Shown: piece by piece, positions 3,191 through 52,069 of the stretch | Layout of the letters: each line of letters starts with the position of its first letter | Numbering within the stretch: the stretch's first letter is position 1 | Source of the DNA: a virus | Taxonomy: Duplodnaviria; Caudoviricetes | Direction: 5' to 3' (one strand) | Virus record (IMG/VR): IMGVR_UViG_3300022413_000001 | Span: 1-58,954 of that record | Length of the DNA: 58,954 nt | Program-made: the position numbers and the translations under genes | The notes under the pieces: generated by a model | What the model saw: the letters and a program-made list of their open reading frames with translations, nothing else | What the model was told of the DNA's origin: nothing | The model's database searches: none

Positions 3191-3769
3191 ATGCCTGAGA
3201 ATGCCTGGAAAAACCGCATCACAGAATTGCGCTCTATCAATGCGTCTGAATTAATGGGGCATGATGGGAATTGGCGTGTGCATCCTCAACATCAAGTCGA
3301 TGCGATGGCTGGTGTGCTTGGAGAAGTCGGCATTGTGGATGCCTTGCTGGTCTATGACAGTGAGCGCCAAGGCGGGCTGACAATCATTGATGGGCATCTG
3401 CGCCGAGACCTGAGAGCGGATGCGGAATGGCCATGTCTCATGACAAACCTTGATGATACGGAAGCGGATTATGTGCTCGCGACGTTTGATTGGCTGACAT
3501 ACCAGGCGCAGGCGGACCGGAAGGCGTTGGATGCCCTCTTGAGGGACATGGCGACGCAGGACGCGGCTGTACAGGCGCTCTTAGATAAGATGCAATCTCA
3601 GTTTTTATCTGAAATTAAGCTACCTGACGAAAACATACATGATGAAACCGTACAGAAATCAGAATCTTTGATTGAGATTCGATGCAGTCAGGCTACGTTT
3701 CAAAAGATCCACGCGACCTTGTCTGAATGGGATTTATTGTATGACGACTTCGAGATTGACATTTCGTGA
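3191..3769 (+). CDS. ParB/Srx N-terminal domain protein (typical partner of DNA-modification genes)
   Basis: NWRVHP and IIDGHLR motifs. Confidence 0.75.
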   Translation: MPENAWKNRITELRSINASELMGHDGNWRVHPQHQVDAMAGVLGEVGIVDALLVYDSERQGGLTIIDGHLRRDLRADAEWPCLMTNLDDTEADYVLATFDWLTYQAQADRKALDALLRDMATQDAAVQALLDKMQSQFLSEIKLPDENIHDETVQKSESLIEIRCSQATFQKIHATLSEWDLLYDDFEIDIS

Positions 3770-4514
3770 GCAGACAGAAATAAGCTGGCAGAAGATACTG
3801 CGGGATCAATTTAATGATGAAGGCGTGCCACCTGTTCCGCATCTTTCTCTGAAGAAGGCAGTTGTAAAAGCGGTCTCATATCGTTTTGCCAAACAAATTA
3901 TTCTAAAATACGAATGGCTAGGCACGATGGGACCATCAACTTATCATTACGGAATTTTCTTTGGGCCGTATTGTGCTGGTGTTTGTTGCTTTGCAATCGG
4001 CGGCGGGACGGGTGGTGCATATGTACATAAGCCATTTTTAATAGAATATGATGAATTGGCAATTTTGATAAGAGGGGCTTGTGTACATTGGGCACCCCCT
4101 GGATCAAACTCCAAGCTTGTATCATTGTCAACTAAAATGCTACTTAAGAGCACTAAAGCATTGTTAGTGTTGGCTTACTCTGATTCAGATGCTGGAGAGA
4201 TTGGAACTATATATCAGGCTTGCAACTGGGTCTATATTGGGAAAGGAGGATCAACAACGCAATATGTTTCAAGAAAAAACAGAGTTATGGATCAGAAGAT
4301 TGTCCATGATGTTTCAAAACAAAATAATGTATCAAGAAAGGAAGTGGAAGATGCATTATTGAAGTCAGGATGGAGAAAACAAAAAAGCAATCCAAAGGGA
4401 AGGTATGCCTTTACACTGAATGTAGATTTAAAGAATCGCCTTGAGCAGATGCGGAAGCCGTATCCGAAACGCCCCACAAGCATAGACAGCGATGCGTTAG
4501 CTATCCCAGGCTAA
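3741..4514 (+). CDS. Mom-like (GNAT-fold) DNA adenine modification enzyme
   Basis: AYSD..AGEIGTIYQACNWVYIG and C-terminal PYPKR motifs typical of Mom-family proteins; start probably ATG 3741. Confidence 0.8.
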   Translation: MTTSRLTFREQTEISWQKILRDQFNDEGVPPVPHLSLKKAVVKAVSYRFAKQIILKYEWLGTMGPSTYHYGIFFGPYCAGVCCFAIGGGTGGAYVHKPFLIEYDELAILIRGACVHWAPPGSNSKLVSLSTKMLLKSTKALLVLAYSDSDAGEIGTIYQACNWVYIGKGGSTTQYVSRKNRVMDQKIVHDVSKQNNVSRKEVEDALLKSGWRKQKSNPKGRYAFTLNVDLKNRLEQMRKPYPKRPTSIDSDALAIPG

Positions 4515-23148: not shown

Positions 23149-24804
23149 CTATGGACACCCCGACTCTGCGCCGTTCACATATGCCTCAATGACATCGTCC
23201 GGGGGTATGTTCGGGTCGATATCCCTAAATGACGGCGGGACTGGAGCCAGCCCAAGGAGTGTCCGTGAGATGTAGACCACATCCGTGGCCACGTTGAGTA
23301 CATCGTGTTTATCCACGTTGTACTCAAGGAGGTGATCGTTGATGAACGCCTCAATGATCTCATCGGCGGGTATCGTGGGGTCGATGATCCGGAACGATGG
23401 CGGCACGGCTGAGAGGCCCAGCAGCGTCCGTGAAATATAGACCACGTCAGTCGCTACATCCACCGTATCGTTGCCGTCCACATCCAGCGCACAGACGTCT
23501 GAGGTGCGCTCGTAAGCACCCATGTCGACCTCGGCACCCTGCGGCCTGGCCGTGCCGGTAAAATCAAACCATGGAACAGCAATAAGCAGTCCCGCATCAA
23601 TGGCGGGGCTCGCCGAACCGAGCCGAAAATCGTTATTACCCGCGTCGAGGTATTCAGGATCCACGGCCCGGCTATTTGTGCCCCCTCCTGCCGATTCCCA
23701 TGTGCCATCCTCGATGTCGTTTCCGTCATAGCGGGTAGTCGTCGTGGTGGTTGAGCATCCAGTTTGAATGATGATGTGGTCGGCTGTCGTAGGCGTGCGG
23801 AAATAGAGATTGTAATCCTCCTCCAGGGTCACGCAGGTAGGTGCCTCCAAAGGTTTTGTTCCCGTGACGATGTTGTTCTGCATCATTACGGTATACGGAT
23901 CATTGGCGTTAGCCAGAATGCCCCGCACGCTCTCATCAATCGTGTTGTGGTGCAGAGTGATGGTGTTATCGTTGCCCGACAAATTCGTCAGGGTTATACC
24001 GACGTTTGTGTTGCCGTGCACGAGGGAGTTTGTGAGAGTCCCATTCTCCCAGAACCGGGTACCCCGGCAGTTGCCGTAGGACTCAGTACGGTCCAGTGAG
24101 GCGTTGTTAGCTTTCAGGTCAAAGCCATCCTCCCCGTTGTTGTACGCTTTCACATCAATAAACGTGAGGTCCGAGGTCCCCGCCGTAGCCGAAAATCCAT
24201 CAGCATCCCCGCTGCATCCCAGCCCGTCATCGTTGCTGTAGCTGTCCGTTTCCTTCACCACGATATCATGAGTGCCACTTGTGAAAGATACACCGTTCTG
24301 GCTGTTATCGTGGATCATGCACCCATCTACGACGCTATCGAAGCTTCCGCCGAACAGGATACCCGTTTTGTTATCATGGATGTTGCAATCCTTAATGAGC
24401 ACGTCATGTGCACCTGCCCGTACAAAGATCGTCTCGTCATACCCGCCGCGTAGCTCGAAGCCGACAATGTGTATATAGGCAACGCCTGCCTTGACATCAA
24501 ATGCTTCGAGGCTCGCCCCTGGGTCTGGGCTTTCCATGACCGCTCCTGTCGTACCATCAAACGTAATGACGCTACCGCTGCTCCCCGACACCGTGATATC
24601 TACCGCTTCCGTGTACGTGCCAGCCGCTACGATGACGCTATCTCCAGCCACCATGGTGTTGGCAGCCTTTTGGACGGTGCTCCAGGGCTCCTCCTGCGTG
24701 CCTGGGTTGGCGTCATCTCCGGTTGTGGCCACATAGTAAGTCGCCGCATGAGCCGAAGCTACCAAGGCCAGACACATCACAAAAATGCTCATCAATCGAA
24801 TCAT
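23149..24804 (-). CDS. Secreted right-handed beta-helix (DUF1565/pectate lyase-like) protein with a C-terminal dockerin-like duplicated domain
   Basis: Signal peptide ending AHA; YYVA..G.D.NPGT...PW.T.Q.A; SPAIDAG...DMGAYE; two copies of DVD....VATDVVYISRTLLGL. Confidence 0.8.
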   Translation of the reverse strand: MIRLMSIFVMCLALVASAHAATYYVATTGDDANPGTQEEPWSTVQKAANTMVAGDSVIVAAGTYTEAVDITVSGSSGSVITFDGTTGAVMESPDPGASLEAFDVKAGVAYIHIVGFELRGGYDETIFVRAGAHDVLIKDCNIHDNKTGILFGGSFDSVVDGCMIHDNSQNGVSFTSGTHDIVVKETDSYSNDDGLGCSGDADGFSATAGTSDLTFIDVKAYNNGEDGFDLKANNASLDRTESYGNCRGTRFWENGTLTNSLVHGNTNVGITLTNLSGNDNTITLHHNTIDESVRGILANANDPYTVMMQNNIVTGTKPLEAPTCVTLEEDYNLYFRTPTTADHIIIQTGCSTTTTTTRYDGNDIEDGTWESAGGGTNSRAVDPEYLDAGNNDFRLGSASPAIDAGLLIAVPWFDFTGTARPQGAEVDMGAYERTSDVCALDVDGNDTVDVATDVVYISRTLLGLSAVPPSFRIIDPTIPADEIIEAFINDHLLEYNVDKHDVLNVATDVVYISRTLLGLAPVPPSFRDIDPNIPPDDVIEAYVNGAESGCP

Positions 24805-25966: not shown

Positions 25967-26145
25967 GAGTGCTCATTCCTCTTCTCAGCACAGTAAAAAT
26001 AGGGGAAGTCAGGCCACCAGCTAAACCAGGCGAATTCCGGAAAGGTTTCTCCCATGTCCTCCAGCCATTCGTCAGGCTGCACTGGAGACTCATGTACATG
26101 CTGAGACATAATTTTACAAATCTTTTGCGCGTCATCTAGAGTCAT
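25963..26145 (-). CDS. Hypothetical protein, paralog of 25386-25586
   Basis: MTLDDAQKIC...PDEW...FPEFAW. Confidence 0.55.
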   Translation of the reverse strand: MTLDDAQKICKIMSQHVHESPVQPDEWLEDMGETFPEFAWFSWWPDFPYFYCAEKRNEHS

Positions 26146-26158
26146 GATTGTTTCCTTT

Positions 26159-26659
26159 CTATTCTTCTGCCCATCCAAAAAAATCCTTTGCCCACATGAA
26201 ATCGATATCCGCAGCCTCTGCTGCCTCCTGATCTGTTTTCCAGTCTCCTACATAGAGACAGGTGTGCGGAGCATGCAGGACTCCACGTGAATGCCAAAAC
26301 ATTTCGGCATCCAGGAGCATCTTAGGCTTGGGTTTGCGGCATTCACATTCCTCAGCAGGGGCATGAGTGCAAATGAATAGGCTGAGCTCACGTGGGAACC
26401 TGCCAGTTGCCTCAATAACCATGTCAGCAATAAGTTGATAAGCCATCACTTCTGTCAGGTATCCTAGTCCGACTCCCCCCTGGTTAGAGATGACGGACAG
26501 CCCTACCTTGTCCCAATCATAGAGCGCCAATGTTTCTCTCACATTCTCCTTTAATCTCCATTCTCCTGTTTTATTGGGGCATGGCTGACCAGGGACTGTA
26601 CATTCCCGCAAAGTTCCATCGGCATCAAAAAACAAGGCATCGTAAGGTAATGGGTGCAT
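26159..26659 (-). CDS. HAD-IIIA phosphatase (GmhB / histidinol phosphatase / PNKP-like)
   Basis: DADGTL, SNQGG, C.H....CECRKP.P.ML and VGD...D..AA motifs. Confidence 0.85.
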   Translation of the reverse strand: MHPLPYDALFFDADGTLRECTVPGQPCPNKTGEWRLKENVRETLALYDWDKVGLSVISNQGGVGLGYLTEVMAYQLIADMVIEATGRFPRELSLFICTHAPAEECECRKPKPKMLLDAEMFWHSRGVLHAPHTCLYVGDWKTDQEAAEAADIDFMWAKDFFGWAEE

Positions 26660-26752
26660 GTAATTTTTCCTTCCAGGCTCCCAAAACGAAAAGTGCGGCC
26701 ACAAGGGTCAGTATGCCCGCTGCGAATCCGATCAGAAAGGGCAACACAATGC

Positions 26753-26992
26753 TCATAGTGTATTCTTCTCACTCATCCCGGCGATCCATTCCTCTTTTCC
26801 TCCCAATAACTCGTCTACTGGAATGCCAAGCCGGTAGTGTAGTTTTGCCAAAGTATGACGGCGCGGATTCAAGAATTTTCCGCTCGCCAAATTCAGCAGC
26901 TCTTGGTATTCCAGCCCTGCTTCACGCGCGGCCTGCGCCTTGGATATGCCTAACTCATTGATTTTATTTAGTAAACTTTCGGCAACAGTCAT
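26753..26992 (-). CDS. Cro/CI-type HTH regulator
   Basis: GISKAQAAREAG ... NPR..TL.KL...L; AGGAGGTG RBS. Confidence 0.8.
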   Translation of the reverse strand: MTVAESLLNKINELGISKAQAAREAGLEYQELLNLASGKFLNPRRHTLAKLHYRLGIPVDELLGGKEEWIAGMSEKNTL

Positions 26993-27014
26993 TTTTGCTC
27001 ACCTCCTATTTGTA

Positions 27015-27090
27015 AAAATAACACAATGTTAAAAAATATGCAAGATTTTTACATTTATCCATTGACAAGCATGTTTTAACATAGTATAGT
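27015..27090. promoter_or_regulatory. Divergent promoter pair (switch-like region)
   Basis: Plus strand TTGACA(27062)-17-TATAGT; minus strand TTGCAT-17-TATTTT; ATGTT..AACAT palindrome in the plus-strand spacer. Confidence 0.7.
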
Positions 27091-27283
27091 TATGTCAGAA
27101 GTTAGGAACAAAGAGCGGACGGGAGGCCAGCAAAAAGGGTAGAGGAGCTGGCGAGAAACCCACCAACCAAACCAACCGCTCCTCCCAGCCAGGGAGACAT
27201 ACAGAGGTCCACGAGAGCCTAAATCTCAGCCACCGTTAGCCTTGGCAAGGCGGCGCAGGGGAGGCCCGGATGGCAACCGATAC

Positions 27284-27333
27284 ATAGTGTCCACGCAAGA
27301 GCGTGCTGACGAGCCTGGGAGGCGAAACACTAT
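27284..27333 (+). ncRNA. Type III hammerhead ribozyme
   Basis: ATAGTG-TC^-CACGC AAGA GCGTG-CTGACGA-GCCT GGG AGGC-GAAA-CACTAT: complete core and three stems, with GUC cleavage after 27291. Confidence 0.9.
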
Positions 27334-27349
27334 ATATAAGGAGAGAGTC

Positions 27350-27628
27350 ATGAAATACACAGGAATCGAAATTGACCTGGTCTTTGATCTCAAGACAGGA
27401 AGGCCCAATTATGTGGTCACGGGAAATACCTATCCCGTGAAAGAGGATTTGAAAGGCTTGGGTTTTGTCTACGCAAAGACCAATGAGTACCCAAATGACG
27501 TTCCTCATTGGGTGGCGCCCGAAACGGAGGAACGCACGGAAGCGCTCCGCGCTGCTGCCCCTTGGGCGACACATCTTGACGAGAATGGTGATTGGTGGCG
27601 GATGAAGCACGCTACCCCCGCATTCTGA
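27350..27628 (+). CDS. Hypothetical early protein
   Basis: AAGGAG RBS; GNTYPVKEDLK.LGF motif common in small phage proteins. Confidence 0.65.
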   Translation: MKYTGIEIDLVFDLKTGRPNYVVTGNTYPVKEDLKGLGFVYAKTNEYPNDVPHWVAPETEERTEALRAAAPWATHLDENGDWWRMKHATPAF

Positions 27629-27666
27629 CACACAGCGGGCTACGGCCCGCACAGAAGGAGATCATC

Positions 27667-27849
27667 ATGGCATACGCAATTGAACTAGTCGATGCTTCCC
27701 GGAATGGCGCATTAGAACTCTATCACGATACTGAAACAGGGTTTTTTATCATCAGAGACTATCTCTATAATCAGACCACTCTTTTTCAGTTGGAGTCGGA
27801 AGCTCTCAATCAATTTGAAGCATGGATAGATGAATTGCATTTGGATTAA
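27667..27849 (+). CDS. Hypothetical early protein
   Basis: AAGGAG RBS. Confidence 0.55.
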   Translation: MAYAIELVDASRNGALELYHDTETGFFIIRDYLYNQTTLFQLESEALNQFEAWIDELHLD

Positions 27850-27947
27850 TTCGTACAGAGATACGGCCCGCATAAAGAAGAGAGGCTGGCAGGCTAAGCA
27901 GTTATGGTGACGGCAAGCCTGCCAGCCCAATCACGAAGGAGAAGATC

Positions 27948-28256
27948 ATGTTAGCACAGCAGCCCGCGACTCACAACCGGAAACGGAACACGCACAAACG
28001 GCGCAATGCCTATCACGCGCCGGCAGACATGACGGCGTTGCAGCAAAACATTGCAGCGGTAACACTCAACCACATTAGGCAGGGAAAAGCGGTAGACTAC
28101 CGCAATCTGGCGATAACCTATCCGCTAGCATTTGACCTGGTGTATGTTGCCCTGGGAGAGACGGAGAAGGTGGAGACGGGCATGGTCTGCAACGAAGCAT
28201 CGTTGAGGCGACGCCTCAACGAGCGGGAACGGGAGCGGTTCGAGGCGTTACGATAA
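27948..28256 (+). CDS. Hypothetical early protein
   Basis: AAGGAG RBS. Confidence 0.55.
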   Translation: MLAQQPATHNRKRNTHKRRNAYHAPADMTALQQNIAAVTLNHIRQGKAVDYRNLAITYPLAFDLVYVALGETEKVETGMVCNEASLRRRLNERERERFEALR

Positions 28257-28286
28257 CACCACATGTGCGGGCGAAAGGGTTAATCT

Positions 28287-28484
28287 ATGAATTTCAAAGA
28301 CCTATTCAGAGACCTACCCGAATACAACGAGAATGAGCACGCCGAAGTTGAGTGGAGATGGGATGAGCCATGGGAGCAACTTCTCCTCCGCATTAGGGAA
28401 GGGCTGGAGGACTGCGCCGAATGCGGAGAGCTCGCTACCGATGTGCAGTTTGGCCAGGCGGTATGCGAGGCATGCAAGATTTAA
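28287..28484 (+). CDS. Small C4 Zn-finger protein
   Basis: CAECG...CEAC. Confidence 0.55.
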   Translation: MNFKDLFRDLPEYNENEHAEVEWRWDEPWEQLLLRIREGLEDCAECGELATDVQFGQAVCEACKI

Positions 28485-28503
28485 TGCCATATGGAGGGAA
28501 ACA

Positions 28504-29043
28504 ATGAATCAAGAAAAGATCGTTGAGTTGTTAACAAATATCAAAAATTTTAACCAATGGAGAGAGGAGCAACCAGATAGCGATATCAATCTCAGTGGGG
28601 CGGACCTCCGTGGGGCGGACCTCAGAGGGGCGAAGCTCAGTTGGGCGGACCTCAGAGGGGCGAAGCTCAGTTGGGCGGACCTCAGAGGGGCGAAGCTCAG
28701 TTGGGCGGACCTCAGTGGGGCGGACCTCAGAGGGGCGTGGCTCAGTTGGGCGGACCTCAGTGGGGCGGACCTCAGTGGGGCGGACCTCAGTTGGGCGAAG
28801 CTCAGTGGGGTTGCCTTCTGTGGAACAATAGGGGTTCTGATCGCGCAATTCGATCCTCGCAACTACACCTTGGTTGTGTGGAAGTGTCAGGGGAAACCGC
28901 GAGTAAAGGCAGGATGCAGGGACTTCAGCTTCGAGGAAGCCCTGGCTCACTGGGGCTCTTCTGACTATCCTGATGCAGCAAGAGGTCAGATGTATGTGCA
29001 AATGATAAAGTTGCTGAGTGCGTCATTCGAGGAGGGCGTATGA
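28504..29043 (+). CDS. Pentapeptide repeat protein
   Basis: ~15 A(D/K)L(S/R)(G/W) repeats encoded by 15/30 bp tandem DNA repeats; C-terminal ..AGCR.F...EA..HW domain. Confidence 0.9.
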   Translation: MNQEKIVELLTNIKNFNQWREEQPDSDINLSGADLRGADLRGAKLSWADLRGAKLSWADLRGAKLSWADLSGADLRGAWLSWADLSGADLSGADLSWAKLSGVAFCGTIGVLIAQFDPRNYTLVVWKCQGKPRVKAGCRDFSFEEALAHWGSSDYPDAARGQMYVQMIKLLSASFEEGV

Positions 29044-29252
29044 TCTATCTCATTTGGCTGGGTCTGCCCATAGTCTGTGCCTTCATTCTGTGGCCATGGC
29101 TCATCTTCTGGGTCATGGCTTATCTTCTGGGTAGCATCATCTTGCTCGTGGCGGTTGGCAGGCATTTTGCGGGATGGTTCCCCGAGCACCAGCCGCTGCT
29201 GGAAAGCAGCACGCTGGAAGAAATTGAACAAACTGTGGAGCAAGGGAGGTAA
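29040..29252 (+). CDS. Small two-TM membrane protein
   Basis: Hydrophobic; ATGA-coupled to the previous gene. Confidence 0.55.
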   Translation: MIYLIWLGLPIVCAFILWPWLIFWVMAYLLGSIILLVAVGRHFAGWFPEHQPLLESSTLEEIEQTVEQGR

Positions 29253-29254
29253 GA

Positions 29255-29513
29255 ATGGGGAAAATGGCATTTTAACCGATCAGTATGATTACTTTGTAAA
29301 CGCTTTGGTAGGTGTCCTGCAAAACATACCAGAAGGACAAGATCTTCACACCAGCGCTTTTATAAATGCTCTCGCCTTGGTTGTTGCCGCTACAATTCAG
29401 AGCCTCTTCCAGGGCGAGGAGGATAGAATTGGCAAACAAGTTGAGTTCTTGGAAATTTGGAAATGTGGAAGCGGGAAGTGGTGGCAAAGCTTCTGGAATA
29501 CAGCGGCAAATAA
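29255..29513 (+). pseudogene. Doubly frameshifted paralog of 30471-30683
   Basis: GGAGG-ATG is out of frame at the T4 run 29270-29273; 8 bp tandem duplication TTGGAAAT at 29449-29464; shares QYDYFV.A with the minus-strand gene. Confidence 0.55.
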
Positions 29514-29523
29514 GGAAGAAACT

Positions 29524-29976
29524 ATGTTCAAACCCCTCGTCTTGGGTTCGCTCGCCCTTTTGGCGATGTCCGTTAATGCCAACGCCCACATGGGGCGATA
29601 CCCTTGTGACTTTGACGAAGCGTTCGTCGCCAAGATCCGGAAACTCTCTAAAGACGAACGCCCTCAAAATTTTCAACTTAGAGCAGTTCTCGACTTGGCC
29701 GTGGACGCCGCAGAGCATTGCCGTGAAGAGGCATTGGTGGAAGTCATGAATTCCTTCATGACGAAGGGATTGACCGGCAATGAAAAGGAGAAAACGCCAG
29801 ACCGTCCTCCTGAACAGGATTGCGAAAACTGGAGGCGAAGCGATGGATTAATGACATGGGAATGTCCATTGGGTTCAATGTCAGAGGGAACAAACTGTCC
29901 TTCAGTAGATGACGATATGGCTGGCACAACTATATGGACATGCCCAAGCGATGTTTCTTCGCCATGGGCAAAATAA
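29524..29976 (+). CDS. Secreted Cys-rich hypothetical protein
   Basis: Signal peptide MFKPLVLGSLALLAMSVNANA; six Cys. Confidence 0.6.
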   Translation: MFKPLVLGSLALLAMSVNANAHMGRYPCDFDEAFVAKIRKLSKDERPQNFQLRAVLDLAVDAAEHCREEALVEVMNSFMTKGLTGNEKEKTPDRPPEQDCENWRRSDGLMTWECPLGSMSEGTNCPSVDDDMAGTTIWTCPSDVSSPWAK

Positions 29977-29986
29977 GAGGGTTGAC

Positions 29987-30130
29987 ATGAGTGAGGGATA
30001 TAGCACAGCGTTGGTGGAAAAGAAGATAACGGAAGCCATCTACATCCTGGAGAAGGGTTCTGAGACGGACAAGGCTTTCGGGAGGATGTTCCTAGAATTG
30101 CTGGAATTGTGGAAGGGGAAAAAAGCATAA
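29987..30130 (+). CDS. Hypothetical protein
   Basis: GAGG RBS; last gene of the operon. Confidence 0.4.
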   Translation: MSEGYSTALVEKKITEAIYILEKGSETDKAFGRMFLELLELWKGKKA

Positions 30131-41050: not shown

Positions 41051-41103
41051 TTGACACATATCAATCTTGTATGTATCATACACATATACAACTTGTGTGT
41101 CAA
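41051..41103. promoter_or_regulatory. Overlapping divergent sigma70 promoters sharing the -10 region
   Basis: Plus strand TTGACA-17-TATCAT; minus strand TTGACA-17-TATGAT. Confidence 0.75.
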
Positions 41104-41117
41104 GGGGAGAGAACGAC

Positions 41118-41330
41118 ATGTTTAGCGTCATTGTGGATGGCCTTCCAAGCGCAAGGGAGGAGTGGGGCAAGTCAGAAAACCGCTACCGTACCTTGCACCT
41201 CGATCCAGAAGCATTGCGTATTATCTCTGAATGGTGCAACGGGCGAAATCTTCAGATTTCACCGCAAGTGAACCAATTTCTGCGTGCGTTTGCGCGTAAA
41301 ATCACAGAAGAAAAAGGAGGCATGGAATGA
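41118..41330 (+). CDS. Small probable RHH-like regulator
   Basis: RTLHLD.EA...I...S..VN.FLR pattern. Confidence 0.45.
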   Translation: MFSVIVDGLPSAREEWGKSENRYRTLHLDPEALRIISEWCNGRNLQISPQVNQFLRAFARKITEEKGGME

Positions 41331-41803
41331 GTGACTTGGTGTCCCAAACGGCTCTGATCGTGGCCAGCCAGGCGTCCGCGCAAGAAATGGACGCAGGCGA
41401 TATTGTCGATTCCATCAGAGTGGTGCATGCTGCGTTGATGGCGTGCGAGACGGGGAGGGAAACCCAAGAGGCGTTCCTTGAGCGGTTGGGGGAGACGCCA
41501 ATGGCTTCCATTAAAAAGGATGAAATCATCTGCTTGGAGTGTGGACAGCCCTTTAAGCTTCTTGCCAATCGACACTTGGCGTTGCATGGGTTAACGCCGA
41601 GTCAGTACAAAGCAAAATGGCGCATGCGCAAGGGCACCCCCCTGAGTTGTATTGACCTGACAAAAAAACGGCGAGCCTATGCTAAAAAAGCCGAAATGGG
41701 ATGGGCATTGGAGCGCTATCGGAAGGTAAACGGGATCAAGGCAAAACCCAAGGCGGTGACGACGGCAGCCAAAAAGAAGCATGCCAAAAAGAAGCATGCC
41801 TAA
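41327..41803 (+). CDS. Ros/MucR-family zinc-finger regulator
   Basis: SI..D.IICLECG..FK.L..RHL..HGLTP..Y..KW motif; Lys-rich tail. Confidence 0.9.
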   Translation: MSDLVSQTALIVASQASAQEMDAGDIVDSIRVVHAALMACETGRETQEAFLERLGETPMASIKKDEIICLECGQPFKLLANRHLALHGLTPSQYKAKWRMRKGTPLSCIDLTKKRRAYAKKAEMGWALERYRKVNGIKAKPKAVTTAAKKKHAKKKHA

Positions 41804-46682: not shown

Positions 46683-47444
46683 ATGCTCAGTGGATGGCTC
46701 ATTGGATATGTGTTGATGCTCTTGGCGACGGTCGCGTTTGCCCAGCCTGCCGTCGAATCGGTCATTACCTATAAGCAGGATGCCCTACAGACGGCACATA
46801 CCACAGGGACGATTCTGCCAGGAGGTACGGACCGGTCATTAGTGGTGTGCATCACGGCAGAGCTCTCTGGAGGCGTGGACCTGACCGTAAGCTCCATGGC
46901 CTTCAACACCTCCGAAAATTGCTCTCATATCCAAACCTCCCGCACTCAGCCCGGAAGCGCCTTTTTCGCCAGCCATTGGTATTGTCCCGCCGTGAGCGCG
47001 GTTACGGCAGCCGTAGACTATACGCATGCGGAGGCGACAACCTCTACCGCCACGGTGATCGCCCTATCCAATGCCTCGCAAACCAACCCCACGGTTGGGG
47101 ACAATGCTGACTGCCTGGACTGTGCGAATGATGAGATATCGATCGTTCTCACCTCAACCCTGGACAACACGCTAATGCTGACGTGCGCCCACTCGGACAA
47201 CGATAATCACGTACACGCCCAAGGGGCAGGACAAACAGAACATTCCGAGCTCGTGGGCGGCGGTAATGGCCATAAGCACTCGACGAGCTCAGAGCTGAAA
47301 GCTGTAGCTGGTGCGGAAACGTTGGTCACAACGATGACCGCAGGGGCGTTGCCTGCTCGAATGTCCTACACCGCTATCGGTGTGACCGAGGCGGGCGCGG
47401 TGCCTGCTCCGAAGAATAGGAGGCATTCATGGCTGTGGTACTGA
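46683..47444 (+). CDS. Secreted beta-sandwich protein with a short C-terminal tail
   Basis: Signal peptide ending AFA; Thr/Ser-rich. Confidence 0.6.
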   Translation: MLSGWLIGYVLMLLATVAFAQPAVESVITYKQDALQTAHTTGTILPGGTDRSLVVCITAELSGGVDLTVSSMAFNTSENCSHIQTSRTQPGSAFFASHWYCPAVSAVTAAVDYTHAEATTSTATVIALSNASQTNPTVGDNADCLDCANDEISIVLTSTLDNTLMLTCAHSDNDNHVHAQGAGQTEHSELVGGGNGHKHSTSSELKAVAGAETLVTTMTAGALPARMSYTAIGVTEAGAVPAPKNRRHSWLWY

Positions 47445-50400
47445 GCCTACTGCTCCTGATTCTGTCGGCAGTGACCAGCTACGCGGCGACTGGTGCCCCT
47501 GCCCCGCCCCTATTTGATGGAGGAACCGGGTCTGCCGCGACGCACTGGGCGACGCCAGGAGGCCCGAACGGGGCAGGAGAGGCGTGCACCGAGGGGGACC
47601 CATGTGGCCTCGATGAAGCGACCAGCCGCGCGTTCGCGAATCACACTGTCATGCTCAAGGACGGCGATTATAATAACGAAGAAATCCGCACTGTCCGCGA
47701 CGGCACAGCAGGCAATCACATCATTTTCAAAGCCGAGAACTCCCGGCTTGCCCGCATCATCACGAACGATCAAAACCCGGTCCTCATCTCTCACGACTAT
47801 ATTACTATCCAGGGCCTCTACATCACCGATAATGCCAATGGTGATGAGGCCGACGCGGGGATTCGCCTCGCGTTTCAGGGCGGGAATCATCATATCATCA
47901 TTGACGACGTCCATATCTTTCACACCGGCGATGTCAATATCCGGGCCACGGGAAACACCACTCAGGACAATGACATTATCATCCGCAACTCCTTATTGGA
48001 CGGATGCGGGTACAACACGACGCAAAACCCGGATCCCAAAAATGACGTAGACGGTGAATGTATCTATATGGGCGGCGGTGGCGCGGGCGGCGTCGACAAC
48101 GTCATGATTTATGACAATGAAATTCGGGATTGGACCTCAAACTCAATCGACATGAAGGCGAATGTTACCGATGTTTGGATCTACGGCAATATCATCCACA
48201 GCTCCGTTGATCATGCGGTCCATGGGGCGCCGTCCGTGGTCGAGGATGGAGCGGTTCATCTCATCGGTTCTGATGTCTATTTTTACAACAATATACTCTT
48301 TAATCTCGATGGCGGTAACCGAGTCTTCCGGACGCGGGCACCAAACAACGGGCAAGTTTATGTTTATAACAACGTCATTTATGATGCCCCAAACGTCAAC
48401 GAGTTTTTCGAAGCCGACTCGGGTAACGGCGATGGGTTCTTGTTTAACAACACGTTGTGGGATTTGAATTCTTACGCGGTTGACGGTACTGGGTATAACC
48501 TCACCGTTAACAACAATCTGGGGGTTGGGACGGGAGATGGTCTGACGATCGCGCAGATGAATGCCAATTGGTTCGTCAACGCGGCGGCTGGGCAGTTTCA
48601 GCTCACGGCCAACGCCACGTTGGCGATCGATGCGGCTGATACTGACCCCTTTTCCGCCACTGATCATGATGGAGCGGCAATCAGTGGAGCAGAGAGGGAT
48701 GTGGGCGCCTACGAGTTCTCTGGGGCGATCACCATGGCTGCACTAAACGCAGCCATTGATGCGGCTGGCCCTGGTGCAGTTATTACGGTTGCCGACAACA
48801 CCTACAACAATCCCGGTGAAATCCTGATTGACCATGACGATAATTGCACGCAGGCGGCACCGTGTACCATCATGGCCGAAACCACAGGGCAGTGGATTAT
48901 CACCGGGAACACGTCCGGATTTAAAGTGAATGGCGATTGGTGGATCATCAAGGGCTTTGTGGTGCAAAACCAAACAGGACATCTCAACAGCGGCTGGATG
49001 GAGATGTACAGCGCCCAAAACGTCGTGGTAGAGGATTGCCGGTTTACGGGTCAGACTGGAGGGTGGGATTTTGCCTTTACCTTCGGCAACGAACCCGACG
49101 TCGAGCAGGGTTTGAACATCACAGTTCAGGACTGCGAGTTTGACAACTGGGCTGGGGCCGACAATTGGATTTTTGACTGGAACGTGCGGAGCAACAACCA
49201 TATCCATACTGGACTCATATGGCGCCGCAATCATATGCACGATCTGAACTTTGACGCCGGGTCTGCCCTGGGTGCGAACAACCTGGGGAATTTCGTAGGC
49301 CGCGCAGGTACAGACTGCGATGGCCTGTTCGAGGATAATATTTGGGAACGCATCTCGGCAGACAACCCTCAAGACAATTGTTTCTTCCACCCGAAGTGCT
49401 CCGGGCTCACCTTTAAAAATGAGATCTTTCGGGACTCTCCAGAATGTGCCATTCGCCTGCGCCAAGGTTATGGTAATGTGCTCGATGGGAACCTGTTCGA
49501 AAACCTCGACGTGGATTTCAACACGGCTCAGGTCTGGGTGTCAGGTGGCGAGCACAAAATCATCAACAACGTATTTAATCCCAAAGGGGGATCGAAGGCG
49601 TGCTTGGAACTGACGGAGGGCTGCATCCTGGCCAGCGCGACAGACGCGGAGTGTTCCACGGAGGCCGATCCAGATAACGACTGTCATTATATTGCGTCAA
49701 GCGGCACGATCATCGCTAACAATACGTTTATCGGCTGCGATACCGAGTCAGTCGATCTCAATGAGGGCGCCAGCTCCAACCAGTGCGATCCAGTCAATGT
49801 CTGCCCACAGCAGAACATCCTGGAAAACAATATCTTGTATCACAACAACGGCGGCGTTGCCTTTCGGGATGCAGGGTGCACTCAGCAAACGGTGGACGAC
49901 AATTTATTTCATCTGGCGGGTGGCGCAACAGTCGGCTTACAGGGTACACGCGCCGACTTTGACAACCCGGATTTTGTCGATGTCGGGGGAGATAATTTCA
50001 ATCTCACCGGGACGTCACCGGCCATTGATGCCGGTCATAATGTAGCGGGAACCACCCTCGATGCGTTCGATATTCTCGGCGTCGCACGACCGCAGGGAGG
50101 AGAGTACGATTTCGGGGCGTATGAGTTCGATGGCGCGGACATGACGCCTCCCTGTGTGCCTCAAAACCTGGTTGCGATGGCGGTTTCCTCGACTCAGATT
50201 GATCTGACCTGGGACGCTTGCCCGGAACCGGATTTACAAGATTATATAGTGCAGAGATGCATCGGATCTGGATGTAGCGATTGGGCAACGGTTGCGGTTC
50301 GGATTCCCCCCTCGTTCAGCAACACCAGCCTGACGCCCGGGCTGGTGCATGTCTACCGGGTGCAGTCACGGGATACGACTGGCAACCTGTCCGCATTCTC

Positions 50401-52069
50401 GGCTACGGCAGAGGCCACCCCGAGCACTTTTTATTATCTTGACCCGGTGTCAGGGGTTGATCAGGCAGGGTGCGGACTGGGTATTGGGGCAGCCGCATGC
50501 GCGACATGGGCGACACTCAATACAGAGGTGACGCCAGCGGCTGGCGATATCGTCTGCCTGCTCAATCCCAGCGGGACGGGCGAGTTGAACGAAAAAATCG
50601 ATCTCACTGCGGCCAATTCTGGCACGTCTGGTAATCCGCTTGTTCTGGATGGGCAATGTGGAGGTCAGTCCGCCAAAGGCATTGTTGATGGAACGGGGGT
50701 CACCATACCGGCATTTGAAGGATTAGTTTTTCTGGCCACGAACACAAATTATGTGCATCTCAAAAACCTGGAAATTCGAGATTCGGATGACGAGCACTGT
50801 GTCCTAGCCTGGGGTATCGGGACGGTAATGGACAATCTGACGGTACATGATTGCGGCGGTCCAACGCAGGGAAGCGGCATCCTTTTCGAAGTTGCCACAT
50901 CACCCACGTTTAACGTGGTGCGAAATTCTGAGATATATAACACATATAAAGGGGGCATTGTTTGCTGGCAGGTTTCAGGTGGGTACTTCTTGTTTGAAAA
51001 GAATGTGGTGCACGATATTGGAGGGAACAGCAATTTTGATGGAATCGAGACAGTAGATTGTGACTACGTGGTGGTGCAGGACAATACGGTTTACTCGGTA
51101 GGGCCATCGGGGGACCTGATCGATATTGGTGGGAATCTTGCGAGTCCTGTTAACCATGTTGTGGTGCAACGCAATCTGGCTTATCGTGGCCCGGTACTCA
51201 CCAATGCGACTGATTTGAAAGTCAACCGAGAACCCGAATTTGTGATTGTGCGGCATAACCGATTCCGGTATGCAGGCATGGAATTTTATGAGCCTGCCTT
51301 AGCAGGTGCAGCAAACAAATTTAAGATGTATCATAACACCATCACCGAGACCGGAATGGACCTTGTCAATCAGAACGGCAGGACTCTGAGGTGGTGGAAC
51401 GGTGACGGGCAGTTTTTCGGCGTCGAGGCCAAAAATAATGCGTTTATTCTATCAGATAATTATCTGATAGAGTTTCAACCCAACAATGACGATGGCAGTT
51501 TTTCGATTATCAAAATGGTCGGGAATGCCTACAAGTTTGGCTTTCGGGGATTTCTCTGGCACGATCCCAGTGGACCCAAGGAATATGCTCCTAATGCGGC
51601 AGGATATGCCGCATGGCGGAGCGAACAGGGGCAGGAACCGGGAGGCGGAGTACTCACCACGCAGACCCTCTCGCAATTATTCGTCAATGTTGCCACTTAC
51701 GATTTTACCCCTACTGCGGTTAGTGATCTGATTGACGCAGGGGTCCCGCTCACTACGACCACTAGTGCGGGAACGGGGACGGATGTCACTGTTGTTGACA
51801 GCACCTATTTTTTTGATGGCTATGGACTCACTCAGGGCGATAGTGTTCAAATCGGTAGCAACCCTCCGGTTCAGATCTCATCAATTAACGAGGGGGCACA
51901 CACCCTGACCCTCGCAACGTCTATCTCGTGGTCAACAGGTGACAGTGTAAATCTGCCGTTCTCTGGTGCTGCTCCGGATATCGGAGCGATTGAGTTTGTG
52001 GGAACCCCTGCACTGCCCGCTGGGGTGGTGATACAGCCAGGCACGTTTAATGGCGGAACATTCAGGTAA
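47429..52069 (+). CDS. Large secreted multi-beta-helix (lyase/chondroitinase-B-like) protein with an FN3 domain
   Basis: Signal peptide; three beta-helix units ending in AIDAG...D.GA.EF; FN3 motif P.NL.A...SSTQIDLTW...YRVQSRD..GN.S. Confidence 0.8.
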   Translation: MAVVLSLLLLILSAVTSYAATGAPAPPLFDGGTGSAATHWATPGGPNGAGEACTEGDPCGLDEATSRAFANHTVMLKDGDYNNEEIRTVRDGTAGNHIIFKAENSRLARIITNDQNPVLISHDYITIQGLYITDNANGDEADAGIRLAFQGGNHHIIIDDVHIFHTGDVNIRATGNTTQDNDIIIRNSLLDGCGYNTTQNPDPKNDVDGECIYMGGGGAGGVDNVMIYDNEIRDWTSNSIDMKANVTDVWIYGNIIHSSVDHAVHGAPSVVEDGAVHLIGSDVYFYNNILFNLDGGNRVFRTRAPNNGQVYVYNNVIYDAPNVNEFFEADSGNGDGFLFNNTLWDLNSYAVDGTGYNLTVNNNLGVGTGDGLTIAQMNANWFVNAAAGQFQLTANATLAIDAADTDPFSATDHDGAAISGAERDVGAYEFSGAITMAALNAAIDAAGPGAVITVADNTYNNPGEILIDHDDNCTQAAPCTIMAETTGQWIITGNTSGFKVNGDWWIIKGFVVQNQTGHLNSGWMEMYSAQNVVVEDCRFTGQTGGWDFAFTFGNEPDVEQGLNITVQDCEFDNWAGADNWIFDWNVRSNNHIHTGLIWRRNHMHDLNFDAGSALGANNLGNFVGRAGTDCDGLFEDNIWERISADNPQDNCFFHPKCSGLTFKNEIFRDSPECAIRLRQGYGNVLDGNLFENLDVDFNTAQVWVSGGEHKIINNVFNPKGGSKACLELTEGCILASATDAECSTEADPDNDCHYIASSGTIIANNTFIGCDTESVDLNEGASSNQCDPVNVCPQQNILENNILYHNNGGVAFRDAGCTQQTVDDNLFHLAGGATVGLQGTRADFDNPDFVDVGGDNFNLTGTSPAIDAGHNVAGTTLDAFDILGVARPQGGEYDFGAYEFDGADMTPPCVPQNLVAMAVSSTQIDLTWDACPEPDLQDYIVQRCIGSGCSDWATVAVRIPPSFSNTSLTPGLVHVYRVQSRDTTGNLSAFSATAEATPSTFYYLDPVSGVDQAGCGLGIGAAACATWATLNTEVTPAAGDIVCLLNPSGTGELNEKIDLTAANSGTSGNPLVLDGQCGGQSAKGIVDGTGVTIPAFEGLVFLATNTNYVHLKNLEIRDSDDEHCVLAWGIGTVMDNLTVHDCGGPTQGSGILFEVATSPTFNVVRNSEIYNTYKGGIVCWQVSGGYFLFEKNVVHDIGGNSNFDGIETVDCDYVVVQDNTVYSVGPSGDLIDIGGNLASPVNHVVVQRNLAYRGPVLTNATDLKVNREPEFVIVRHNRFRYAGMEFYEPALAGAANKFKMYHNTITETGMDLVNQNGRTLRWWNGDGQFFGVEAKNNAFILSDNYLIEFQPNNDDGSFSIIKMVGNAYKFGFRGFLWHDPSGPKEYAPNAAGYAAWRSEQGQEPGGGVLTTQTLSQLFVNVATYDFTPTAVSDLIDAGVPLTTTTSAGTGTDVTVVDSTYFFDGYGLTQGDSVQIGSNPPVQISSINEGAHTLTLATSISWSTGDSVNLPFSGAAPDIGAIEFVGTPALPAGVVIQPGTFNGGTFR

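Follow-up and report, generated by a model that had tools for sequence, protein, structure and literature searches.

A hammerhead ribozyme placed shortly ahead of an early phage gene has been described previously. In haloviruses HF1 and HF2, a hammerhead ("HHphage") lies 13 nt upstream of the start codon of the first early gene, and the 5′ end of the mRNA was mapped to within 3 nt of the hammerhead cleavage site (PMC3088659). As described in the same source, prophage hammerheads flank single genes, have been proposed to process long phage transcripts and, in one case, have ardA directly downstream. The biological role of the phage and prophage hammerheads, which number in the hundreds, is treated as an open question in accounts of these elements (PMC6155905; Weinberg et al. 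2019, PMC6765202). Outside DNA phages, initiation of translation in RNA mycoviruses is reported to require hammerheads in the 5′ UTR (Lopez-Galiano et al. 2026, PMC13725137), and the VIPR systems are described as containing hammerhead-interspersed vrRNA arrays with 9-16 tandem YNNGG units (bioRxiv 10.64898/2026.04.26.720920).

The window, by which we mean the whole 58,954-nt stretch of DNA that was analysed, is the complete genome of an uncultured phage from sediment, present in IMG/VR as a 58,954-bp record with direct terminal repeats and an estimated completeness of 100%. The arrangement of a hammerhead before an early gene, and the link of such hammerheads to phages, are already published (PMC3088659), and as a sequence find the copy in the window adds little. 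Its unusual features are that it is a single ribozyme, that it lies near a promoter, that its stem III is long and that the gene downstream of it is an orphan.

Identification of a type III hammerhead ribozyme

A preliminary description of this DNA had placed a type III hammerhead core with three intact stems at positions 27284-27333 of the plus strand, and our analysis with Rfam family RF00008 (Hammerhead_3, clan CL00010) and with a covariance model of our own (R1) bears this out. The stretch reads AUAGUG-U-C, CACGC-AAGA-GCGUG, CUGACGA, GCCU-GGG-AGGC, GAAA and CACUAU. In particular, the stem I hairpin (27292-27305; 5 pairs and a 4-nt loop) is followed by the core strand CUGACGA (27306-27312; C3 to A9, with position 7 free), by the stem II hairpin (27313-27323; 4 pairs and a 3-nt loop, or 3 pairs and a 5-nt loop) and by the core GAAA (27324-27327; G12, A13, A14 and A15.1, as assigned from the sequence and the Rfam alignment). 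The invariant core (C3, U4, G5, A6, N7, G8 and A9 together with G12, A13 and A14) is complete. A27327 and U27290 form the A15.1-U16.1 pair, and the cleavage triplet, G27289-U27290-C27291, is of the NUH type. Self-cleavage is predicted after C17, that is, after C27291 (27291..27292, plus strand), as judged from where the GUC triplet stands with respect to the core and in agreement with the site given in the preliminary description; the 3′ product would then begin flush with the stem I hairpin.

The pairs that flank the core are likewise intact (C27292-G27305 as N1.1-N2.1 and G27313-C27323 as G10.1-C11.1), and the stems are perfectly paired. Standard core-flanking pairs in the three helices are the criterion described by Perreault et al. 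2011 (PMC3088659), and all of them are found in 27284-27333. Both the Rfam alignment and the minimum free energy (MFE) fold give a type III topology, in which loops cap stems I and II and stem III is open. The window copy thus shares with RF00008 the CUGANGA/GAAA core, the GUC triplet, the A15.1-U16.1 and G10.1-C11.1 pairs, the capped stems I and II and the open stem III. Stem III comprises 7 pairs, including A15.1-U16.1, and 3 further pairs lie beyond one mismatch (27280-27290 with 27327-27337), which makes it longer than the stem III of 3-5 pairs in 65 aligned phage hammerheads. Note that loop I (AAGA, 4 nt) and loop II (GGG, 3 nt) are both short and unlike the conserved loops of the main phage hammerhead group, so that fast cleavage at cellular Mg, of the kind that a tertiary contact between loops I and II allows when Mg is low, is at most a possibility here.

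When a 221-nt segment (27200-27420) was compared with Rfam by cmscan, RF00008 was matched at exactly 27284-27333 over its full length (model positions 1-54 of 54; 45.9 bits, E 2.6e-9). A search of the entire genome with hammerhead models, which the preliminary description had put forward as a check, returned a single RF00008 match at the same coordinates (E 1.7e-10 per genome), and none of 14 control genomes contained one. Because the score lies 2.6 bits beneath the curated gathering score (45.9 vs 48.5), which is a database cut-off and not a structural feature, a default Rfam scan comes back blank. (Note that a whole-window Rfam scan in E-value mode also misses the hammerhead, evidently as a result of speed filters, and that for other ribozymes it produced only two weak, unrelated matches.) The genome contains no hammerhead of type I or type II, which, together with the single type III match, indicates that the phage carries exactly one hammerhead.

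Model R1 was built from 65 distinct phage hammerheads with the window left out, although it is not fully independent, because the patterns that yielded its training set were derived from the 27284-27333 motif. Run with filters off, it identified 27284-27333 at 41.7 bits (E 1.6e-9), whereas the next best position in the genome scored 9.1 bits. The window copy ranks 114th of the 116 R1 matches and is therefore an outlying member of the class. The structure of the class is supported by covariation: in the 116 aligned R1 matches (83 distinct), 96.9% of cells are paired and compensatory changes occur in 12 of 15 pairs, a result reached by none of 500 shuffles.

The MFE fold of 27280-27340 is a three-way junction of -16.3 kcal/mol (z -1.91), and 11 of 200 shuffles folded as well. 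Within the full leader the exact hammerhead fold has P = 0.29, which exceeds the value for 88 of 100 shuffled leaders; the MFE fold of the whole leader breaks the hammerhead and the centroid retains it. The local MFE fold, taken together with the P of 0.29 in the full leader, suggests that folding is likely to be constitutive. On these findings, 27284-27333 is almost certainly a genuine type III hammerhead ribozyme.

Placement of hammerheads in other phages

A survey of IMG/VR phage hammerheads with two patterns gave 16 and 87 stretches, which reduced to 75 unique sites, and 65 distinct sequences were aligned. The loci fell into 43 groups, no two of which had a 60-mer in common. An ATG that opens an ORF lies at most 40 nt after GAAAC in 37 of the 43 groups, at a median distance of 23 nt, and for the window copy this distance is 21 nt. 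Counted over unique sites, an ATG occurs within 40 nt in 54 of 71 cases, compared with 22% of random positions, a lenient control because in-frame internal ATGs count as starts; the median distance for the family is 23-25 nt. Upstream, the adjoining 40 nt fold stably in 33 of 43 groups, and an ORF on the same strand ends shortly before the hammerhead at 71 of 75 sites (median 37 nt).

We consider it very unlikely that the window element resembles a hammerhead by chance or is a relic without activity. A score below the Rfam gathering threshold, minimal loops and a single copy without relatives would all be in keeping with a relic, but neither decay nor chance sits well with an E value of 1.7e-10 per genome, the absence of matches from all 14 controls, the 32-bit gap to the next match in the genome, the intact invariant core positions and core-flanking pairs, and a distance of 21 nt to the start codon that fits the family norm.

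At 20 of 92 loci, the same strand carries two or three type III hammerheads with 300-1500 nt between them. On the contigs with several hammerheads, which include L008, L039, L016/L082 and 13 more, a stable hairpin stands before each ribozyme and a small ORF follows about 23 nt after it. Most of the downstream ORFs (65 of 71) have no PHROG family at E 1e-5; three are anti-restriction ORFs (phrog_7245; loci L035, L071 and L073) and one encodes an endonuclease. A tblastn comparison of the window ORFs with all of the fetched hammerhead loci gave no match.

The window copy resembles the phage hammerheads described by Perreault et al. 2011 in that it occupies a non-coding spacer of a phage genome and is followed at about 20 nt by a gene start, those described by de la Pena 2017 (PMC6155905) in that the downstream gene is small and non-conserved, and HHphage in that it precedes the first gene of an early-looking transcript. 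Unlike the clusters of Perreault et al. 2011, it is solitary in its genome, and in contrast to the layout described there, in which hammerheads lie between co-directional genes of a polycistronic transcript, a promoter and a divergent gene lie upstream of it and a same-strand ORF does not. It also differs from the hammerheads of our survey in that no hairpin abuts its stem III and its neighbouring genes are unrelated to theirs.

Promoter, regulator and leader

A 357-nt spacer separates gene 1, downstream of the hammerhead, from a divergent gene on the minus strand (26753-26992; RBS GGAGGTG) that encodes a 79-aa HTH regulator (phrog_8, E 1.1e-5; Pfam HTH_19, E 7.2e-5, which is under the family cut-off; coding score +0.14). 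On the plus strand, the spacer contains a sigma-70-like promoter, TTGACA-17-TATAGT (27062-27090), which is a consensus match only (11 of 12 positions) and from which a transcription start near 27097 is implied. Sites with at least 11 of 12 sigma-70 matches number 6 in the genome, compared with 0.83 +/- 0.82 in shuffles. An operator-like inverted repeat of 15 nt (27023-27037 / 27071-27085; 87% complementary) has its right arm in the promoter spacer and may function as an operator. If the promoter at 27062-27090 is used, the hammerhead begins 187 nt into a predicted leader of 253 nt, and the predicted 5′ cleavage product, as judged from the promoter and the cleavage site, would be a leader fragment of ~195 nt (27097-27291, plus strand).

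This upstream product might itself be the point, with the hammerhead forming the 3′ end of a ~195-nt leader sRNA or decoy while transcription continues into the operon. We regard such a role as quite unlikely. The leader is long and G+C-rich beside an A+T-rich promoter region, it holds two copies of GC..GGGAGGCC, and a 15-nt stretch of it matches the RBS and start region of the regulator gene at 13 of 15 positions, all of which would suit a leader RNA; on the other hand, nothing credible from Rfam was found in the leader, its fold is no better than that of shuffles (z -0.27), homologues of it were not found, and at 71 of the 75 other phage sites a same-strand ORF, and not a non-coding leader, lies next to the hammerhead on its upstream side.

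Several repeats were observed in this region. An inverted repeat of 15 nt (26992-27006 / 27122-27136; 13 of 15 paired) brackets the whole promoter and operator segment, with one arm in the RBS and start region of the regulator gene (26992-27006) and the other in the leader (27122-27136). By a rough estimate, ~0.09 inverted-repeat pairs of 13/15 would be expected by chance in the region, and an inverted form of the 26992-27136 segment was found in none of three DNA runs. Three copies of the string GGGAGGC fall within 200 nt, two of them in the leader, where they belong to a 14-nt direct repeat (27115-27128 and 27253-27266), and the third in stem II (27317-27323). A single CCUCCCAG in the leader (27181-27188) is complementary to all three copies, so that competing pairings are possible. 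The leader also contains a mini-ORF of five codons on the plus strand (ATG 27270, stop TAG 27285-27287) with GGAGG 5 nt upstream. The stop codon sits in the 5′ strand of stem III, so that the cleavage site would be covered by a ribosome terminating there. The leader is rich in purines and GGAGG is common in it, which makes a nearby ATG unsurprising, and the mini-ORF may well be due to chance.

With these elements in mind, cleavage could be conditional, in that leader sequences or ribosomes on the mini-ORF would compete with folding of the hammerhead and the cut would report on translation or on another signal. We think this highly improbable, even though regulated cleavage of phage hammerheads has been raised by Perreault et al. 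2011 (PMC3088659). The mini-ORF does have a GGAGG Shine-Dalgarno (SD) sequence and a stop codon within stem III, and CCUCCCAG (27181-27188) is complementary to CUGGGAGG of stem II (27314-27321), pairings of a kind that the full-leader MFE fold uses. However, the native leader favours the hammerhead fold more than 88 of 100 shuffles do, and the frequency of SD-like GGAGG in the leader weakens the case for the mini-ORF.

The downstream operon

Four nucleotides (AUAU) separate the end of the hammerhead from the Shine-Dalgarno sequence AAGGAG (27338-27343, plus strand), which lies 6 nt ahead of ATG 27350; the preliminary description was correct in putting the ribozyme a few nucleotides before these two elements and in the position it gave for the ATG. 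On the plus strand, gene 1 (27350-27628; 92 aa; coding score +0.25 per codon), an orphan, is followed by gene 2 (27667-27849) and gene 3 (27948-28256), both of which are supported by coding score and have AAGGAG ahead of their start codons (ATG 27667 and ATG 27948, respectively), and, in the same rightward operon, by a gene for a pentapeptide-repeat protein (28333-29043; Pfam Pentapeptide, E 2.7e-28). (Note that an ORF on the minus strand that spans the hammerhead, 27236-27652, was rejected as a gene; its coding score is -0.23 and it is without an RBS.)

Gene 1 had been referred to as the first early gene. It is the first gene of the rightward operon, and we infer that the operon is early from its near-consensus sigma-70 promoter, the operator-like inverted repeats and the divergent gene for an HTH regulator, features of the sequence that would suit early expression.

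Gene 1 has no Pfam or PHROG family, retrieved only itself from 5.8 billion protein clusters, and had no relatives in viral contigs or, by tblastn, in phage records. Searches of viral contigs for related loci by means of the pentapeptide protein or a nearby HAD hydrolase gave none, megablast of 26000-30000 against phage records gave no relative, and a pattern scan of metagenomes that retained stem I of the window copy gave 0 matches. No relative of the locus was thus present in any of the collections searched.

Phage genome and possible host

The plus strand of the genome encodes terminase, portal, capsid, tape-measure and tail genes, and the minus strand encodes replication genes; no tRNA genes were found in the genome. 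Contigs from the three sediment DNA runs that contain the locus match the window without any difference, showing neither variants nor joints, and no RNA runs containing 26700-28300 are listed.

The best identities of the terminase, 41.9-42.7%, are to mixed phages that include a Desulfofustis phage. The phage also encodes a Ros/MucR-type regulator (41327-41803, plus strand; Pfam E 7.9e-33), whose sole genome match is a contig of a Syntrophobacteraceae MAG (43% identity). These two proteins are weak hints that point towards a host among sediment Desulfobacterota. Near-consensus sigma-70 sites at 41051 and 41103, on both strands, lie in a divergent region that adjoins the MucR-type gene.

Other genes include one for a Mom-family protein (3672-4514, plus strand; Pfam E 5.9e-24) and two for beta-helix proteins. 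One of the latter is of 551 aa (23149-24804, minus strand), and the other is of 1546 aa with a chondroitinase-B-like beta-helix domain (47429-52069, plus strand) and is distinct from the 1566-aa tape-measure protein; they are possibly tail spikes or depolymerases. Near the hammerhead, the gene at 26159-26704 (minus strand) encodes a hydrolase of the HAD-IIIA family that is histidinol-phosphatase / GmhB-like. Given PNK3P as its best Pfam match, a connection with RNA-end repair was considered for this gene and was rejected in favour of a generic HAD-IIIA hydrolase. In NCBIfam its product scores 53.9 bits with TIGR01662 (cut-off 44.6) and 28.1 with DNA-3′-Pase (cut-off 107.65), and its relatives in the PDB are phosphatases of the HisB and GmhB kinds. 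The 70 ORFs scanned with Pfam included neither an RNA ligase nor RtcB.

Predicted consequences of self-cleavage

The reading that we consider probable, though by a long way not certain, is that an active hammerhead trims a ~250-nt leader and so gives the mRNA a fixed, leader-independent and translation-friendly 5′ end, amounting to 5′-end definition or insulation. Our computations show the motif and where it lies, how significant it is and that the layout recurs in other phages; that the promoter is used, that the RNA is cleaved in vivo and that stability or translation is affected are inferences. From the predicted promoter, transcription would start near 27097 and proceed through the hammerhead into the rightward operon. 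The 50-nt motif would fold during transcription and cut itself after C27291, releasing a leader fragment of ~195 nt that ends in a 2′,3′-cyclic phosphate. The remaining mRNA would have a 58-nt 5′ UTR, the 5′-OH of which sits exactly where the stem I hairpin begins. Since the leader would take the upstream strand of stem III with it, the A/U-rich 3′ strand ahead of AAGGAG would become single-stranded. At a computed -7.8 kcal/mol, the stem III duplex that joins the two cleavage products is weak enough that they should come apart, and in folding calculations the probability that 27326-27337 is unpaired rises from 0.35 before cleavage to 0.71 after it.

RNAs with a 5′-OH end evade 5′-end-dependent RNase E. 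Stabilisation or insulation of the mRNA by self-processing, as put forward in the preliminary description, is plausible and would depend on the host.

An active ribozyme might instead lower expression, if the 5′-OH marked the operon mRNA for rapid decay and thereby limited or timed the early cluster; we think that unlikely. The outcome would hinge on the RNases of the host, for which our hints are weak, and RNase J1 reportedly acts on the 5′-OH end after glmS cleavage, a finding ascribed to Collins and colleagues in 2007. Cleavage of glmS, followed by cellular RNases, is described as resulting in negative regulation (PMC6765202), and the window element resembles glmS in being a self-cleaving RNA that lies in a bacterial 5′ UTR and would decide, by its cut, what becomes of the downstream mRNA. 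The likeness has its bounds, in that glmS differs in fold, requires a metabolite and reduces expression (PMC6765202), whereas neither a ligand pocket nor a glmS match was seen for the phage element. Moreover, the 3′ product in the phage would start flush with a stable hairpin, and its strong SD sequence would be more exposed after cleavage, neither of which favours decay. A gene start ~23 nt after the hammerhead recurs in 37 of 43 locus groups, and it would be strange for a silencing device to stand so regularly just ahead of the gene that it silences.

A stronger form of the favoured reading is that self-cleavage is required for expression of the operon, with the long, operator-bearing leader and the extended stem III of 10 pairs closing the region 5′ of the SD sequence until the cut removes the 5′ strand of that stem. 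Cleavage would then open a single-stranded landing site for the ribosome and fix a protected 5′ end. We judge this stronger form to be rather unlikely.

Discussion

Definition of the 5′ end by a trimmed leader, the reading that we favour, has a parallel in an engineered part. RiboJ, a type III hammerhead between promoter and RBS, is said to remove the variable leader and to leave a 5′ end that is independent of upstream sequence, in work attributed to Lou and colleagues in 2012. Its parent is a ribozyme of a plant satellite RNA, which was modified and given an extra hairpin. The window element, which is natural, is placed similarly, between promoter and RBS, and might insulate in the same way.

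As in the mycoviruses, whose self-cleavage is described as linked to translation, the element of the window is a viral hammerhead in a 5′ UTR just before an ORF (PMC13725137). The mycovirus hammerheads are described as type I elements of eukaryotic RNA viruses with cap-independent translation (PMC13725137), whereas that of the window is of type III, from a DNA phage, and precedes an SD-led start. The VIPR systems, as described, share with the window a phage-encoded hammerhead beside a non-coding RNA segment of ~100-200 nt. A VIPR vrRNA array was considered for the window and rejected; of 10 YNNGG units, at most 4 are in phase at any place in the genome, and of 8 in the leader, 3 are. Pfam scans of the window ORFs gave no RAMP-like protein.

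If cleavage were required for expression, the phage hammerheads that stand ~20 nt ahead of start codons would act as processing sites that activate translation, and they would be both a bacterial counterpart of the ribozyme-dependent translation reported for mycoviruses in 2026 and a natural version of the RiboJ insulator. The window copy offers a clean test case, since it is the sole ribozyme of its genome and its predicted promoter, its leader of defined extent and its strong RBS fall within 300 nt, and it bears on whether cuts of this kind stabilise, destabilise or translationally activate phage messages.
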